NCBI GenBank assembly: GCA_047606285.1
Contig: JASGEP010000020.1
Coordinates: 30,891-94,890 of the forward strand
DNA from: Luteolibacter sp.
GTDB lineage: Bacteria; Verrucomicrobiota; Verrucomicrobiia; Verrucomicrobiales; Akkermansiaceae
Direction: 5' to 3'
Length of the DNA: 64,000 bases
Part shown: positions 24,525 through 30,872 of the stretch, piece after piece
How the letters are laid out: every line of letters starts with the position of its first letter
Position numbering within the stretch: the first letter of the stretch is position 1
Notes under the pieces: generated by a model
The model's input: the letters and a program-made list of their open reading frames with translations, nothing else
The model's database searches: none
What the model was told of the DNA's origin: nothing
Program-made: the position numbers and the translations under genes

Positions 24525-24605
24525 GCCGGTTTTTCGGACGATCATTTTTCAGCGCCACGATTGCCAGCGGCGGGGATTTCGTGCATGGGTGACGCTTCAA
24601 TTTCC

Positions 24606-26201
24606 ATGAAACGTTCCGCTCGTCGTTGGTTCCCCATCGTTTCCCTTCCCCTGCTGCTTTGCCATCCGATGCAAGCGGCGGATTTCTCCTTCGAGACGCT
24701 GTGCGCGAAGGCCCGTGAAATGGCCCGTTCCCCGTATCGGCGTGCGAATCTGGATCTGGCCGATTACTGGAAAAACCTGAACTACGATCAGCACCGGGAC
24801 ATCCGTTTCAAGATGGATGCCGGCCTGTGGGCGGATGAAAAAGGCCCGTTTTCCATCGATTTCTTCCACCCCGGCTGGACCGCGAAGCAGATGGTGCGCA
24901 TCCACGAAGTAAAGGGTGCGAAGGAAGAGCTGCTGAAATTCGACCCGAAGCTCTTCGACTACGGCAAAAACAAGGTCCCGGCCAACACATCCGCCCCGGA
25001 AGGCTACGCCGGTTGGCGGGCGCGAACTCACCTGAACACGTCCGATTACATGGACGAGTTCCTCGTTTTCCTCGGAGCCAGCTATTTCCGCGCCATCCCC
25101 GCGAACGCTCCCTACGGTCTCTCGGCACGCGGGCTTTCCATCAACAGTGGCCTGCCGGGGGTGGTGGAAGAGTTCCCGGATTTCACCGAATTTTACCTCG
25201 AACACCCCGGCAAGGACGCCAAGGAGCTGAAAGCCTGGGCCATCCTCGACGGTGAGAGCGTGGCGGGCGCGTATCAATTCGTGATCACTCCGGGCAAGGA
25301 AACCGTCATGGACATCACGGCGGAAATCACCCTGCGCAAGCCCGTGACGCAGCTCGGTCTCGCACCGTTTTCCAGCATGTTCTGGTTCGGCGAGAGCACG
25401 CACCCGCGCCCTTACGATTTCCGCCCGGAAGTGCATGACAGCGACGGCCTGCTGATGGAGCTGGAAAGCGGAAATCTCCACTACCGCCCGCTGGAACACA
25501 CCGCAGGGCAATTCCGCCACTGCGTTTTCACCCTCGAAAAACCCCGCTCCTGGGCACTGGTGCAGCGCGACAGGAGATTCTCCTCCTATCAGGATCCGGA
25601 AGCGATCTACCACAATCGGCCAAGTGTGAAAGTCGAGCCGGTCGAAGGATTCGATCTCGGCAAACTCCACCTCATCGAGATGCCGACCGATGACGAAACG
25701 GAGGACAACGTGATCCTCGCCTGGGAACCGCAGCCGACTCTCGAAGTCGGAAAAACCACCCGTTTCCGCTACCGTCTGCGCTGGATGCGAGATCCCGAGC
25801 CGTCCGGGAAATTCACCGTGCAGGCCACCCGCTCCGGCACTCCCGTGCAGCGCCCGGATCAGGTGCTGATGACCGTGGATTTCGCCAAACCCCTCCATCC
25901 CGAACTGAAAACCGGAAATCCGAAGTGGGACGACATTTCAAAATTCAAGCCGGTGATTACCGTGAACCAGAAAGAGGTGAAAATCGTCCACGTCGGCCTC
26001 ACCGACATCAGCATGCCAAACGTGGACGACATCCCCGGCGGCCTCGGCCGTGGCGATCAACTCCACATGCCGCAGGTGCTGCGTGCTTTCTTCGTCCTCG
26101 AACCACCTGCCGACCTGCGCAGCATCGACATGACCTGCGAACTCCGCGACGAAAACGACAAGACCGTTTCCGAGCGCTGGGAGTACTTGTGGATGAAGTG
26201 A
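24606..26201 (+). CDS. mdoG: Periplasmic glucan biosynthesis protein (MdoG/OpgG-OpgD family)
   Basis: LNYDQHRDIRF, FLGASYFR, YGLSARGL, RPEVHDSDGL, ETEDNV, SERWEY. Confidence 0.9.
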   Translation: MKRSARRWFPIVSLPLLLCHPMQAADFSFETLCAKAREMARSPYRRANLDLADYWKNLNYDQHRDIRFKMDAGLWADEKGPFSIDFFHPGWTAKQMVRIHEVKGAKEELLKFDPKLFDYGKNKVPANTSAPEGYAGWRARTHLNTSDYMDEFLVFLGASYFRAIPANAPYGLSARGLSINSGLPGVVEEFPDFTEFYLEHPGKDAKELKAWAILDGESVAGAYQFVITPGKETVMDITAEITLRKPVTQLGLAPFSSMFWFGESTHPRPYDFRPEVHDSDGLLMELESGNLHYRPLEHTAGQFRHCVFTLEKPRSWALVQRDRRFSSYQDPEAIYHNRPSVKVEPVEGFDLGKLHLIEMPTDDETEDNVILAWEPQPTLEVGKTTRFRYRLRWMRDPEPSGKFTVQATRSGTPVQRPDQVLMTVDFAKPLHPELKTGNPKWDDISKFKPVITVNQKEVKIVHVGLTDISMPNVDDIPGGLGRGDQLHMPQVLRAFFVLEPPADLRSIDMTCELRDENDKTVSERWEYLWMK

Positions 26202-26223
26202 GCTGTCGGGAAAGTTTTTTATA

Positions 26224-26262
26224 ATTGGAATTGTTCTTGATATAGATTGGAATGATTCTAAA
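26224..26262. promoter_or_regulatory. Two tandem ICE-like boxes (ATTGGAA-N3-TTCTTGA and ATTGGAA-N3-TTCTAAA)
   Basis: Boxes at 26224-26240 and 26246-26262, 22 bp apart, in an AT-rich gap before the Fur-family gene; resemble the Irr consensus TTTAGAA-N3-TTCTAAA. Confidence 0.6.
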
Positions 26263-26273
26263 TTCCCGTCGCC

Positions 26274-26717
26274 ATGTCAGTTCATCGCCCTGAAATTTCT
26301 CACGAATCCGTTCTTCCGGACGAGATCGGCGGGCTTCGCATGACGAAGCAGCGGCAGGAGGTGTATCGCGTTCTCATGGATGAAAAGGATCATCCGACGG
26401 CCAATGACGTGTTCATGCGCGTAAAGGATCGCCTGCCGAACATCTCCCTCGCGACGGTTTACAACTGCCTCGAAGCACTGGTGCAGCACAACATCGTCCG
26501 CCAGGTGAACTTCGAGCGCGAGCCGTCGCGTTTCTGCTCGAACAAGATCGACCACGGTCATTTCCACGACCAGACTACCGGCACGATCCACGACATCCAT
26601 TTCAAGCCGGGATTCGACCTTTCCCAGGTCCTCGATTTGCCCGCCGGTGCCATGATTAGCGACATCGAAATCACCCTGCGCGGCACGTTTTCCAACTCTC
26701 AACAACCTTCCTCTTAA
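26274..26717 (+). CDS. Fur-family metal-responsive regulator (Irr/PerR-like)
   Basis: RMTKQRQEVY, HPTA, ISLATVYNCL, DHGHFHD; no C-terminal CxxC motifs. Confidence 0.88.
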   Translation: MSVHRPEISHESVLPDEIGGLRMTKQRQEVYRVLMDEKDHPTANDVFMRVKDRLPNISLATVYNCLEALVQHNIVRQVNFEREPSRFCSNKIDHGHFHDQTTGTIHDIHFKPGFDLSQVLDLPAGAMISDIEITLRGTFSNSQQPSS

Positions 26718-26726
26718 CTCTCGACC

Positions 26727-27479
26727 ATGAGCCTGCACATCCAAGACCTCCACGCCACCCTCGAAGACGGCACCGAAATCCTCAAGGGCGTCACCTTGAC
26801 CATTCCAAAAGGTGAAGTTCACGCCATCATGGGACCGAACGGTTCCGGTAAATCCACGCTTTCGAAGGTGATCGCCGGTCACGAAGGTTACGTCGTCACC
26901 TCCGGCTCGGTGACGCTGGATGGTGAGGATATTTTCGAAATGTCCATCGACGAGCGTTCCCGCGCCGGGGTTTTCCTCGCGTTCCAGTATCCGTCGGAAG
27001 TCCCCGGAGTTTCCAACGCGAACTTCATCCGCGCCGCGTTGCAGGCCCGCCTGCCGGAAGGTCAGGAAATCGACGCCGTCGCCTACTACAAGCAACTTTA
27101 CGCCGCGATGGACCTGCTGGAAATGGACCGCAAATTCACCTCCCGCGCCGTGAACGAAGGCTTCTCCGGCGGTGAGAAAAAGCGCAACGAGATCCTGCAA
27201 ATGATCATGCTCGATCCGAAATATGGCATCCTCGACGAAACCGATTCCGGTCTCGACATCGATGCCCTCAAGATCGTCGCCAAGGGCGTGAACTCCATGC
27301 GTTCTCCGGAGCGCGGCTTCCTCCTCATCACCCACTATCAGCGCCTGCTCGACTACATCACCCCGGATCACGTCCACGTGATGGCCGAGGGCCGCATCGT
27401 CCGCTCCGGCGGCCCCGAGCTCGCCCACGAGCTTGAGAAATCCGGCTACGATTTCCTCAAGGACCTCGTTCCCGCCTAA
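26727..27479 (+). CDS. sufC: Fe-S cluster assembly ATPase SufC
   Basis: [45 protein letters not shown]. Confidence 0.97.
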
Positions 27480-27498
27480 CATTCACCCATTTTCCACC

Positions 27499-28941
27499 AT
27501 GTCCTACGACGAAACCTCCGCCGCCCTCCTCGACGAGGAAACGCACGAGGCGATCAATATCGATCGCACCAAGGGCGATTTCACCTTTCCCGAGCGTCAC
27601 AAATACGACGCCGGCCGGGGTCTTTCCGCGAAGACCATCGATTACATCTGCGATGTGAAAAAAGATCCCGACTGGGTGCGCGAGTTCCGCCACAAGGCGC
27701 TCCGCGTGTTCCAGGAAAAACCGCTGCCCACGAACTGGGCCACGACGGATCTGGAAAACATCAACTTCGACGAAATCCGCTACTACCTTTCCGACGGCGA
27801 AAAACCGAAACGTTCCTGGGAAGACGTGCCGGAAGACGTGCTGAAAACCTTCGAGCGCCTCGGCATTCCCGAGCAGGAACGCGCGTTCCTCGCCGGCGTG
27901 GAAGCCCAGTACGACTCCGAGGCCGCCTACTCGAACATGAAGGAAGAACTCACCAAACAGGGAGTCATCTTTGTGAACTCGACCGAAGGTCTGAAGGAAT
28001 ACGAGGAAATTTTCCGCCCGTGGTTCGGCAAGGTGATCCCCACCGGTGACAACAAATTTTCCGCGCTGAACTCCGCGGTGTTTTCCGGCGGCTCCTTCAT
28101 CTACATTCCGAAAGGCGTGAAGCTGAAGCAACCGCTGCAAGCTTACTTCCGCATCAACTCCGAGAGCTTCGGCCAGTTCGAGCGCACGCTCATCATCGCC
28201 GACGAAGGCGCCGAGGTGATGTACATGGAAGGCTGCACCGCGCCGAAATTCGAAACCGCCACCCTGCACTCCGCCGTGGTCGAACTCGTCGCCCTCAAAG
28301 GCGCGAAGATCCAGTACGTCACCGTGCAGAACTGGAGCAGCAACGTCTTCAACCTCGTGACCAAGCGCGGCCTCGCGCTGGAAGATGCCGAAGTGCGCTG
28401 GATCGACTGCAACATCGGTTCCCGCCTCACTATGAAATATCCCGGTGTGGTGATGAAGGGCGAAGGCGCGCGCGGAGAGGTGATTTCCATCGCCCTCGCC
28501 AACAGCGGACAGCATCAGGACACCGGTGCGAAGATGATCCACGCCGCGAACAACACCACCTCGAACGTCGTTTCCAAGTCCATTTCCGTCGGTGAGGGAC
28601 GCGCGACTTATCGGGGTCAGGTCCACATTCCGAAGCATCTCAAGGGTTGCAAAAACAACACCGAGTGTGACGCGCTGCTCATCAACACCCGCAGCCGCAC
28701 GGACACCTATCCGGCCATCACCGTGAAGGGGAACCAGCACTCCACCCAGCACGAAGCGTCCGTCAGTCAGGTATCCGAGGAAATGCTCTTCTACATGCAG
28801 CAGCGCGGCATCAGCGAAGGCGCGGCCATGTCGCTCGCCGTGAACGGTTTCATCAACGATCTCGTCCGCGAGTTCCCGATGGAATACTCCGTCGAACTGA
28901 AACGCCTGATCGACCTCGAAATGGAAGGTTCCGTAGGCTGA
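27499..28941 (+). CDS. sufB: Fe-S cluster assembly protein SufB
   Basis: [46 protein letters not shown]. Confidence 0.97.
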
Positions 28942-28946
28942 TTTTA

Positions 28947-28984
28947 ACTGACCGATCCGACTGATCGTTCTGATCCGACTGATC
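28947..28984. repeat. 9-bp tandem repeat (about 4 units, TCCGACTGA-like) between sufB and sufD
   Basis: actgaccga tccgactga tcgttctga tccgactga tc. Confidence 0.75.
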
Positions 28985-28992
28985 TTTTTCCC

Positions 28993-30246
28993 ATGACCAC
29001 CACTCTTCCTTACTGGTTTTCCGCCCGCAAAATCTCCGCCCAGGCACGTTACGAAGCCACCGCAACGCCGAAGCGCGGCGATGAAACGTGGCGTTTCTCG
29101 AATTTCAAACAGCTCGATTTTTCCGGCGTGCGCCGTGGAGAGGTTCCTTCGGATGCCGCCGGTCTGATCGTCCGTTCCGAAGGACTCGCAACGCCTGTCG
29201 CGAAATTCGTTTTCGCGAACGACCACCTGATCCATTCCGAGACCAAGCTGCCGGAAGGCGTCATCTGTCTGCCGATTTCCGAAGCGCTCGTTTCCCACGG
29301 CGAGCTGGTGGAAGCGCATTTCATGAAGCAGGAAACCCGCCTCGGCTCGGCCAAATACGCCGCGCTGCACGAAGCGAATCTTTCCAACGGCCTTTTCGTT
29401 TACGTTCCGGAAAACGTGGAGATCAAGGGCACCATCGAGGCACATCACTGGATCTCCGGTGAAAACGTGGTGATCTATCCGCACACGCTGATCGTCACCG
29501 GCACGGGCGCGAAGGTCCGTGTTGTCGATCTTTTCCGCTCGGCGGACGAAGCGCCCGGCCTCGCCATCGCTTTCAACGATCTCTGCGCCGGTGAAGGCTC
29601 GAAGCTCGATTACGTCGCGATTCAGGCGTTCAACGAGCAGACGCGCGTCATCCAGATCAACGAAACGTCCGTCGCTTCCGACGCTTCGACGAAAGGTTTC
29701 ATCCTCAATACCGGCGCGTCGTGGGCGCGCAACGAGTCGCTGTCCCGCCTCGAAGGTCGTGGTGGCCGCTCGGACATGCTTTCCGTTTCCATCCCCTCGC
29801 ATGAGCAGGAATACGATCAACGCACGTTCCAGCATCACGTTTCCCCGGGTGCCTATTCGGATCTGCTCTACAAAAATTCGCTCTACGATTACGCCAAGAC
29901 GATCTTTTCCGGTCTGATCTTCGTCGATGAAGGCGCTCATGAAACCGACGCCTATCAGACGTGCCGGAATCTCTTCATGAGCGAGACCGCCGAGGCGAAT
30001 TCCATGCCGGGTCTGGAAATCAACGCGGATCAGGTGAAGTGTTCGCACGGCAGCACTTCTTCCTCGATCAGCGATGAGGAGCTTTTCTATCTGCGCGCTC
30101 GCGGTATCGATCCGGTGCGCGCCCGTCAGCTCATCGCCCGGGGTTTCTCGGTGGATGTGGTCGAGCGCCTTGGTGATGACGAGGCCGAAGCGCTGGTGCT
30201 GAAATTCATCGACGAGAAATTTTCCCGGATTGCGACGAAGCGCTGA
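28993..30246 (+). CDS. sufD: Fe-S cluster assembly protein SufD
   Basis: ETWRFS, ANSMPGLEINADQVKCSHG, LFYLRARGI. Confidence 0.93.
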   Translation: MTTTLPYWFSARKISAQARYEATATPKRGDETWRFSNFKQLDFSGVRRGEVPSDAAGLIVRSEGLATPVAKFVFANDHLIHSETKLPEGVICLPISEALVSHGELVEAHFMKQETRLGSAKYAALHEANLSNGLFVYVPENVEIKGTIEAHHWISGENVVIYPHTLIVTGTGAKVRVVDLFRSADEAPGLAIAFNDLCAGEGSKLDYVAIQAFNEQTRVIQINETSVASDASTKGFILNTGASWARNESLSRLEGRGGRSDMLSVSIPSHEQEYDQRTFQHHVSPGAYSDLLYKNSLYDYAKTIFSGLIFVDEGAHETDAYQTCRNLFMSETAEANSMPGLEINADQVKCSHGSTSSSISDEELFYLRARGIDPVRARQLIARGFSVDVVERLGDDEAEALVLKFIDEKFSRIATKR

Positions 30247-30266: not shown

Positions 30267-30872
30267 ATGAAGGCCTTCGCTCTTTTACCCGCTCTCGCCC
30301 TTTTCACGCTTTCGGGTTGTGAGAAGGCGCGGACGTTGCAGGATTCACTGCTTCAGAAAGTCCGGGAGAGCAAGGCGGAGGCTTCGGCTTCGGCGGTGGC
30401 TGCGGGTCCCGCGGCATCGGAGGCGGTGCGGATGATCGACTCGGCTTCGTACGAGGCATTCATCGCGCAGAAAAACCGGCTGGTGATCGTGGATTTCTAC
30501 GCCGATTGGTGCGGGCCTTGTCGGGTCATCGGGCCGGTTCTTGAAAAAGCCGTGGCCGCACATCCCGAAGTGGTTGTGTTAGGCAAGGTGGATGTCGATG
30601 TTTCCCGCGATCTGGCAGCCCGGCATAACGTCACCAGCATCCCGGATGTCCGCATTTTCCGGGACGGCAGGCAGGTGGAACGGATCATCGGTTTTTCCGG
30701 CGAAGCGAAGGTGCTCGCGACCATCGCGGCTCTCGCGAAGGATGTGGAACCGGCGGCTCCGGAACCGTCTCAAGAGCCGTCTCCCGTGCCCGATGCGGAT
30801 TCGTCCGGACCCGTGCAGGGGATGCAGCCGATGAAAAAAGACTGGATGCCGGAGGGCATACAGCGGCGTTGA
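30267..30872 (+). CDS. Thioredoxin-domain lipoprotein
   Basis: Lipobox LSGC; DFYADWCGPC; SIP cis-Pro motif. Confidence 0.85.
   Translation: MKAFALLPALALFTLSGCEKARTLQDSLLQKVRESKAEASASAVAAGPAASEAVRMIDSASYEAFIAQKNRLVIVDFYADWCGPCRVIGPVLEKAVAAHPEVVVLGKVDVDVSRDLAARHNVTSIPDVRIFRDGRQVERIIGFSGEAKVLATIAALAKDVEPAAPEPSQEPSPVPDADSSGPVQGMQPMKKDWMPEGIQRR

Follow-up and report, generated by a model that had tools for sequence, protein, structure and literature searches.

Irr and IrrA of the Rhizobiales and Rhodobacterales are Fur-family regulators that have the suf genes for iron-sulfur (Fe-S) assembly among their targets. The iron control element (ICE) bound by Irr reads TTTAGAA-N3-TTCTAAA, with the form TTTRGAAYNRTTCYAAA in Bradyrhizobiaceae (PMC1698941). 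Irr is stated to be limited to Alphaproteobacteria, and PerRA of Leptospira has operators that resemble the Irr box. PerR and Irr share two hallmarks, an Asp at position 104 (PerR numbering) and an Asn in helix 4 (PMC8638967). Here we describe a Fur-family gene that heads the sufCBD genes of a verrucomicrobium, Luteolibacter sp. It lies in a 64,000-nucleotide stretch of contig JASGEP010000020.1 (assembly GCA_047606285.1, positions 30,891 to 94,890 of the forward strand), which we call the window and number from its first letter. With a probability of about 60%, we read the gene product as a dedicated, autoregulated repressor of the suf operon, which belongs to a distinct subfamily of the Fur family and represses in its metal-loaded form.

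Operators, promoter and synteny of the suf operon

The two operator boxes, the promoter and the genes that carry the argument are arranged as follows.

72-bp intergenic region between an MdoG-family gene and the Fur-family open reading frame (ORF): carries both boxes
26225-26239: operator box 1, TTGGAATTGTTCTTG, the weaker palindrome; 18.6 bits on the operator weight matrix; fits TTRGAAYNRTTCYWR
26237-26264, forward strand: sigma-70-like promoter, TTGATA - 16 nt - TAAATT; 9 of 12 matches, 0.2 expected in shuffles
26247-26261: operator box 2, TTGGAATGATTCTAA, a 7-1-7 palindrome with one half-site mismatch; 23.0 bits on the operator weight matrix
26274-26717, forward strand: Fur-family regulator, 147 amino acids; Pfam FUR 82.3 bits, 4e-23
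26727-27479, forward strand: sufC, Fe-S assembly ATPase with an ABC_tran domain
27496-28941, forward strand: sufB, SUFBD_core (1.6e-76) and SufBD_N; an alternative TTG start at 27433 overlaps sufC
28993-30246, forward strand: sufD, SUFBD_core (4.8e-62)

An initial annotation of this DNA had placed two boxes 22 bp apart upstream of the regulator gene, and both are found at that distance. It had read box 2 as a 7-3-7 palindrome, ATTGGAA-TGA-TTCTAAA, two mismatches away from TTTAGAA-N3-TTCTAAA. The mismatch count is correct, but a 7-1-7 reading fits better. Read in this way, box 2 is TTGGAAT-G-ATTCTAA and its half-sites differ at one position. The 7-3-7 description was dropped: the conserved core reads TTRGAAT-N-ATTCYAA and does not extend to the outer T/A positions of the ICE. 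As far as sequence can tell, the boxes are best read as 7-1-7 palindromes of the Fur type, TTRGAAY-N-RTTCYAA, and the Irr ICE consensus has the same core. The motif shared by the upstream regions of the orthologue loci is aTTAGAATnATTCTaa. The ICE-like character claimed for the operator was confirmed at the level of sequence. The Verrucomicrobiae operator TTRGAAYNRTTCYAA agrees with the ICE core throughout, R and Y alternatives included, and fits the Bradyrhizobiaceae form at every specified core position. ICE-like sites were also sought in plasmid records ahead of the reference genes for Irr, FurA and PerR, with an uninformative outcome.

The pattern TTRGAAYNRTTCYWR has two sites in the window, which are the two boxes, versus 0.07 expected, and 0 of 100 shuffles matched that count. 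A position weight matrix (PWM) was built from 32 orthologous sites and used at a threshold of 14 bits. Box 2 is its top-scoring site in the whole 3.2-Mb genome. A motif scan upstream of orthologous suf operons, suggested by the initial annotation, found the box in 127 of 129 loci, comprising 30/30 from the same family, 20/20 from other families and 77/79 of the loci from named records. Both exceptions are named loci with less than 80 nt of upstream sequence. Box 1 stands at the position homologous to the single box, ATTAGAATnATTCTTGA, of most same-family loci. The two-box layout at the 22-bp distance also occurs in L007 and L009, and 15 of the 79 named loci have two boxes.

Both operators lie on the predicted promoter. 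The last three bases of box 1 are the first three (TTG) of the -35 hexamer, and box 2 occupies the spacer and shares 3 bp with the -10 hexamer. The operator lies on the promoter in the orthologue loci, too. With both hexamers covered by operator sequence, repression is implied. Autoregulation, which had been proposed earlier, is almost certain. The -10 hexamer of the window ends 9 nt ahead of the ATG, and there is no Shine-Dalgarno sequence. Because the -10 hexamer is so near the ATG and a Shine-Dalgarno sequence is absent, the suf operon mRNA is probably leaderless or nearly so, with the start taken from the promoter position. The arrangement TTGnnn-16-TAnnnT, ending 8-15 nt ahead of the ATG, was found in 27 of 30 family loci (upstream regions of L005-L033).

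The regulator stop codon ends at 26717 and the sufC ATG begins at 26727, which gives the 9-bp gap already reported for these genes. The same order, regulator directly followed by sufC-sufB-sufD, was seen in all 30 family loci and also outside the family, in 20 of 20 loci that represent at least 12 more families of the class. In the 30 family loci, the sufC right after the regulator is 76-91% identical. We also examined 80 of the more than 560 relatives returned from named genome records. Synteny is kept in every named locus with sufficient flanking sequence, and the Limisphaerales-type order is regulator-sufB-sufC. The record labels include Limisphaerales, Opitutales/Opitutaceae, Chthoniobacterales, Terrimicrobiaceae, Methylacidiphilales and Akkermansiaceae. 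In total, about 129 loci have the trio of box, regulator and suf genes, and they represent no fewer than five named orders of the class Verrucomicrobiae. Synteny across this class bears out the claim that a Fur-family regulator heads sufCBD outside Alphaproteobacteria.

Within the GTDB family of the window, 54 of 60 sampled genomes have the orthologue. In a phylum sample of 250 genomes the scores were bimodal: about 70 genomes, all from the window's class, scored at least 92 bits, and genomes of other classes scored no more than 63 bits. As far as searched, the subfamily appears to be confined to the class Verrucomicrobiae. Some metagenome-assembled genome records (L075, L081, L084, L085, L096, L117 and L141) are titled "uncultured Bifidobacteriaceae", "Haliangiales" or "Akkermansia muciniphila" and have Limisphaerales-like or Methylacidiphilales-like versions of the locus. 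They look like mislabelled or contaminated bins.

Two further genes flank the locus.

24561-26201: MdoG-family gene, upstream neighbour of the regulator region
30267-30872, forward strand: gene for a thioredoxin-domain protein (Thioredoxin domain, 5e-25), 20 bp past sufD

The thioredoxin-domain gene is probably the last gene of the suf operon, because the next gene sits on the opposite strand; its membership is taken from spacing alone. Its product has a lipoprotein-like N-terminal signal (LSGC) and might be co-expressed with suf as a redox partner in the periplasm or the membrane.

Predicted sensing site and phylogeny of the regulator

The window protein belongs to the Fur superfamily, with its Pfam FUR (PF01475) score of 82.3 bits against a cut-off of 23.1. 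As noted in the initial annotation, it lacks CxxC: its only two Cys residues are C65 and C88, and it has no structural Zn(Cys)4 site. Residues 85-108 are SRFCSNKIDHGHFHDQTTGTIHDI. The HGHFH motif pointed out before is present in the window protein, but its third His is variable across the clade. Nor does the lack of CxxC characterise the clade. Both CxxC pairs are kept in Limisphaerales, Chthoniobacterales and some others (L034, L036, L041 and L075-L105), whereas the window's family and members of the Opitutales type (L004-L033 and L042-L047) have lost the Zn(Cys)4 site. About half of the members retain both pairs. Loss of CxxC was therefore ruled out as a family-defining trait, and the structural zinc site was lost within the clade.

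The protein has a winged-helix DNA-binding domain with Asn64 and a predicted regulatory site made of H40, C88, H94, H96 and D107. Its best matches among solved structures are B. subtilis PerR (2fe3, 2.5e-15) and then Leptospira PerR (5nl9), which has no Zn site. The alignment to 2fe3 is gapless with an offset of 3 and pairs H40 with H37, N64 with N61, C88 with D85, H94 with H91, H96 with H93, and D107 with D104. An AlphaFold2 model (mean predicted local distance difference test score, pLDDT, 84) superposes on holo PerR-Zn-Mn (3F8N) with a template modelling (TM) score of 0.72 and a root-mean-square deviation (rmsd) of 2.4 A; on apo PerR (2FE3) the rmsd is 14 A. This model and a Foldseek search indicate a generic holo-Fur/PerR fold (TM about 0.7) and do not discriminate subfamilies.

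Residue conservation was counted over 127 distinct clade members. H40, H94, H96 and D107 are invariant, N64 and C88 are each present in 126, and N90 is present in 124. Thus the PerR/Irr hallmarks are found throughout (N64 in 126/127, D107 in 127/127). The Fur/Mur/Zur set, which consists of Arg in helix 4, Glu at position 104 and metal-uptake boxes, is not found: Asn64 and Asp107 are present. The five PerR ligands (His37, Asp85, His91, His93 and Asp104) are not complete, as four are kept and Asp85 is changed to Cys88. The nearest non-member representatives carry Asp at this position. The clade signature is this Asp-to-Cys change in the predicted regulatory site, by which Cys88 replaces Asp85 of PerR/Irr; the initial annotation had not singled it out. 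Position 89 is occupied by Pro in 81% of the clade members and by Ser in the window protein. Cys88 may tune Fe(II) binding or may be an oxidant-sensitive ligand; it is less likely to be a ligand of an Fe-S cluster or, through Cys-Pro, of heme.

The structure matches bear on an alternative in which the regulator is a PerR-type peroxide or oxygen sensor. H2O2 would oxidise iron-bound His40 or His94, or the Cys88 thiolate, and release the protein, and suf would then repair oxidised clusters. A metal-bound thiolate is intrinsically reactive with oxidants. The top matches among both structures and curated models are PerR (2fe3; Clostridial PerR at 73.6 bits), and along with the four ligands the protein keeps Asp107 and Asn64. 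There is also a precedent for PerR control of suf in Streptococcus mutans (PMC11631912). However, at the fourth base, the one that discriminates, the operator departs from the PerR box (TTATAAT-N-ATTATAA), and constraining the clade to join the Firmicute PerR costs 16.8 log-likelihood units. We consider this alternative unlikely; it overlaps with the metal-loaded repressor that we favour rather than excluding it.

The Cys in the sensing site raises another alternative, a direct Fe-S cluster sensor with feedback like that of IscR, SufR or RirA. A cluster would sit on Cys88 and neighbouring His/Asp residues, perhaps with a small-molecule thiol, and the loaded form would repress. The clade-defining change does put a Cys into the site, the regulon is the Fe-S assembly operon alone, as with the dedicated SufR and IscR, and E. 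coli Fur reportedly binds a [2Fe-2S] cluster. However, the protein lacks the Cys residues that E. coli Fur uses, and there is one invariant Cys per site; no close precedent exists for a cluster held by a single Cys together with several His. This alternative is very improbable.

The initial annotation had called the regulator Irr-like, with a convergent PerR type as the other option; curated NCBIfam models do not place it in Irr. The window protein scores 64.3 bits on the IrrA model (NF045678), which has a cut-off of 150, and 59.8 bits on the Irr model (NF045677), which has a cut-off of 170. As a control, four reference Irr sequences score 180-214 bits on the Irr models. The scores are 73.6 against 180 for Clostridial PerR and 65.6 against 220 for Bacillus Fur; overall, the curated PerR models gave 57-74 bits versus cut-offs of 180-250. 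Neither the window protein nor any of 38 clade members reached the cut-off of a curated Irr, PerR or Fur model in NCBIfam.

A tree was built with reference sequences of IrrA (from Rhizobium and Rhodobacter plasmid records), of PerR, Fur and Zur (from Bacillus, Listeria and Staphylococcus), of E. coli Fur, and of Mur-like and FurA-like proteins. The B. japonicum Irr sequence was entered by hand and scored 214 bits (IrrA model) and 210 bits (Irr model) before it was used. The B. subtilis PerR sequence, also entered by hand, agrees with the 2fe3 alignment, and the Leptospira PerR fragment was copied from the structure alignment; the remaining references were retrieved from sequence records. For the deep phylogeny, the alignment supplied about 150 columns, and Irr was represented by four sequences. 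The supports were 100/96 for the Verrucomicrobiae clade, 100/99 for Irr, 100/98 for Firmicute PerR and 98/86 for the Fur/Mur references. The backbone of the tree is a polytomy. In approximately unbiased (AU) tests, p was 0.545 for the clade with Irr, 0.43 with the sister representatives, 0.117 with Fur and 0.061 with PerR, and none of the four was rejected. The log-likelihood of the clade+Irr constraint was 0.6 above that of the free search. Irr was also the most frequent sister: among 1000 bootstrap trees, 52.5% have it in the group next to the clade. The clade and Irr have several residues in common, namely P123-x-G125, an acidic residue at 132 and R136, which were found in 0 of 18 other named references. 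Among 32 unnamed relatives, 7 have P123, and a minority have the Irr-shared residues.

The regulator is well supported as a distinct Fur-family subfamily with its own clade, and by curated models and tree placement it falls outside Irr. Because of the bootstrap frequency, the AU result, and the shared PxG and C-terminal motifs, Irr is weakly favoured as the nearest named relative. The phylogeny thus left one part of the Irr-type claim standing, with Irr as most frequent sister, and removed the other, as the clade is separate and not nested in Irr.

Regulon, polarity and proposed mechanism

At 14 bits or more, the PWM has four positions in the 3.2-Mb genome of the window, and two of them are the suf boxes. 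The second-best genomic site, TTAGAATTTTTCTAA at C14:59399-59413 (21.3 bits), was rejected as a target, as it lies in an AT-rich gap between convergent gene ends; the 414-amino-acid ORF beside it is an antisense shadow. This site is probably non-functional because no promoter is evident there, and its presence is otherwise unexplained. C13:10007 was rejected since the site falls within an ORF. No operator was found ahead of catalase, ahpC, dps or other classic PerR-regulon genes in this genome scan, which argues against the peroxide-sensor alternative. The two suf boxes are the only plausible sites in the genome, and the protein is therefore read as a dedicated, autoregulated suf repressor. 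In G231, a complete genome of 4.7 Mb from another family, the exact matches are its two suf boxes only. In G057 (6.4 Mb), a looser pattern matches only once, at the suf box. Other pattern matches in relatives (e.g. L156, L177 and L178) were discarded, as they are as frequent as in the reversed-pattern control and lie mostly within ORFs.

The genome of the window has two other Fur-family proteins elsewhere, both with CxxC pairs. It also has four Rrf2-family (IscR/NsrR/RirA-type) regulators (L183-L186, on contigs C44, C41, C29 and C35), none of them beside suf.

In three Akkermansia genomes (G054, G133 and G141), a perfect palindrome, TTGGAATCATTCCAA, is kept at 15 of 15 positions about 22 bp upstream of a UvrA-like gene. 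Its positions are as follows.

L159, 1501-1515: palindrome ahead of the UvrA-like gene
L181, 2001-2015: palindrome ahead of the UvrA-like gene
L182, 2001-2015: palindrome ahead of the UvrA-like gene

The gene product begins MSHCEDGRIRIRGAREHNLQNVD, and the sequence flanking the palindrome diverges. TTGGAATCATTCCAA is closer to the operator consensus than the Akkermansia suf box, CAGGAATTGTTCTTG. The UvrA-like gene may be a second target in Akkermansia. No site like this palindrome was found in the window's genome.

In the complete genomes that we assign to Akkermansia (G264, G133, G054 and G141; loci L160-L163), the suf-linked gene is the only Fur-family gene. In NCBI, the G133 protein is entered as "Fur family transcriptional regulator [Akkermansia]", and its gene is at about 593 kb. 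Because there is one Fur gene per genome and this position fits the locus tag, we infer that the suf-linked gene is Amuc_0486. In the only expression data found, Amuc_0486, the sole annotated Fur, is down 2.6-fold in iron-amended medium, and it is up 2.8-fold with iron-laden polyphenols versus FeCl2 in dipyridyl iron-depleted medium (PMC12552655). Higher expression at low iron favours a metal-loaded repressor, that is, Fur/PerR polarity, over Irr-type binding at low iron, provided that the gene is Amuc_0486. For an autoregulated Irr-type repressor, which binds DNA at low iron, the opposite would be expected, and the inferred orthologue thus argues indirectly against Irr polarity. Since Akkermansia's sole Fur-family gene is suf-linked, the "global Fur" of A. 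muciniphila is probably a local suf regulator. If so, global iron control would be left to another regulator, e.g. the DtxR-like Amuc_1082 (discussed in PMC12552655).

These expression data also bear on a true Irr-type switch. Here the protein would bind its ICE-like operator at low iron or heme, and heme bound through the Cys88(-Pro89) thiolate and H94-x-H96 would inactivate or degrade it. In that case a shortage of iron would bring repression of suf as a form of iron sparing, as Irr does in Rhizobiales. The identity of the operator with the ICE core at all specified positions speaks for such a switch, and so do the Irr-like recognition helix SLATVYN(C/T)L, the common N64, D107 and N90, and the C-terminal residues and sister-group results given above. 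Cys-Pro is found in 81% of members, the window protein has no Zn(Cys)4 site, and Leptospira PerRA is a precedent for Irr-box-like operators beyond Alphaproteobacteria (PMC8638967). However, both curated Irr models, which real Irr sequences pass, were failed widely, and the clade (100/96) is not within Irr. The window protein has Cys-Ser rather than Cys-Pro, and half of the clade retains the Zn site. The inferred Akkermansia orthologue shows the opposite polarity (PMC12552655), and shutting down suf at low iron would be physiologically awkward, as it is the sole Fe-S assembly operon identified here. We therefore give little credence to an Irr-type switch.

We return to the metal-loaded repressor. 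The comparative sequence evidence for it covers the operator, its promoter position, the synteny, the one-operon regulon, the clade and the signature residues. That the protein represses, which ligand it takes and with which polarity it responds are inferred; for the polarity, the Akkermansia expression data give only indirect support. In this mechanism, dimers of the regulator would bind one or two 15-bp 7-1-7 operators, TTRGAAY-N-RTTCYAA. With box 1 on the -35 hexamer and box 2 on the spacer and -10 hexamer, occupancy would block RNA polymerase. The PerR-type site at the hinge between the two domains (H40, H94, H96, D107 and, uniquely, Cys88) would switch on DNA binding once occupied. We take Fe(II) to be the ligand; Mn(II) might stand in for it. 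Iron scarcity would empty the site, the repressor would leave, and the regulator and sufCBD would be transcribed. Oxidation by peroxide or O2 at an iron-bound His or at the Cys thiolate could be a second trigger of release. The physiological logic of a suf repressor is release when Fe-S demand is higher, as under iron limitation or oxidative stress.

Several points weigh against this mechanism. The Amuc_0486 fold-changes are small and come from one study, and the equation of the genes is inferred. Cys88-Pro, the residue pair of 81% of members, is the dipeptide of heme-regulatory motifs, and the operator is that of the heme-sensing Irr. Very tight binding of Zn(II) is conceivable for a Cys/His3/Asp site and would speak against simple Fe(II) sensing. 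The Rrf2-family regulators might also act on suf.

A further possibility, bolder and rather doubtful, is that the clade is the sister lineage of alphaproteobacterial Irr and that Cys88, among three His, binds heme or an Fe-S cluster and not a bare metal ion. If this were true, the regulator would read the product or the status of iron-cofactor synthesis directly. It would be the first Irr-type or cluster-sensing Fur-family switch beyond Alphaproteobacteria, and a thiolate in the PerR site would be a chemistry new to the family.

Comparison with known systems

Full-text literature searches for Verrucomicrobia, Akkermansia, Opitutus and Methylacidiphilum found no prior description of the subfamily, its operator or its link to suf. 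Amuc_0486 has been treated as a generic Fur in Akkermansia (PMC12552655). Control of suf in Verrucomicrobiae is undescribed in the literature searched, and a single conserved regulator and operator across the class are now indicated. The clade is a natural experiment for the Fur family, with an Asp-to-Cys change in a PerR/Irr-type site, an ICE-type operator beyond Alphaproteobacteria and loss of the zinc site within the clade. It also bears on the origin of Irr, which is said to be limited to Alphaproteobacteria.

Compared with Irr/IrrA, the regulator has the same Fur fold, ICE-core operator TTRGAAYNRTTCYAA, recognition-helix Asn and Asp at position PerR-104. It also has H-x-H, P-x-G and, in the final strand, [DE]-x-x-x-R, its target is among those of Irr, and the window protein is without Zn(Cys)4. 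In contrast, Irr has Asp at the Cys88 position, and half of the Verrucomicrobiae clade keeps the Zn site. The Irr regulon is global for iron, whereas here a single operon is headed by the regulator gene, and the inferred polarity is opposite. Of the heme-binding motifs of Irr, HxH has a counterpart in H94-G-H96, yet PerR has this motif as well. The Cys-Pro heme-regulatory motif of B. japonicum Irr has a counterpart in the 81% of the clade with Pro at position 89, but not in the window protein.

B. subtilis PerR (2FE3, 3F8N) is alike in its conserved H37, H91, H93, D104 and Asn61 and in the 7-1-7 geometry of its operator. PerRA of Leptospira interrogans (5NL9) is also without CxxC and is reported to have an Irr-box-like operator. 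The differences from PerR are the change of Asp85 to Cys, a G and not a T at position 4 of the operator half-site, and peroxide-defence genes that are without the operator.

Zur proteins reportedly have a Cys shortly before the His-rich strand in their sensing sites (the M-site of Streptomyces coelicolor; Asp/Cys/His/His in Mycobacterium tuberculosis). Two Firmicute Zur references align a Cys at or beside column 88. However, Zur has Arg in the recognition helix, Glu at 104, another operator and a zinc-uptake regulon, whereas here the regulon is suf alone.

In its role, the regulator is closest to SufR of cyanobacteria and actinobacteria and to IscR, which are autoregulated repressors encoded by the first gene of suf or isc with a very small regulon. 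These belong to unrelated families (DeoR/ArsR-type and Rrf2) and sense an Fe-S cluster with several Cys residues, in contrast to the His3/Asp/Cys site of a Fur-family protein. By function, the regulator would rank with the local regulators of Fe-S assembly, by analogy and not by membership. We thus describe a new Fur-family subfamily that combines a new composition of the sensing site, an Irr-type operator and a SufR-like role.

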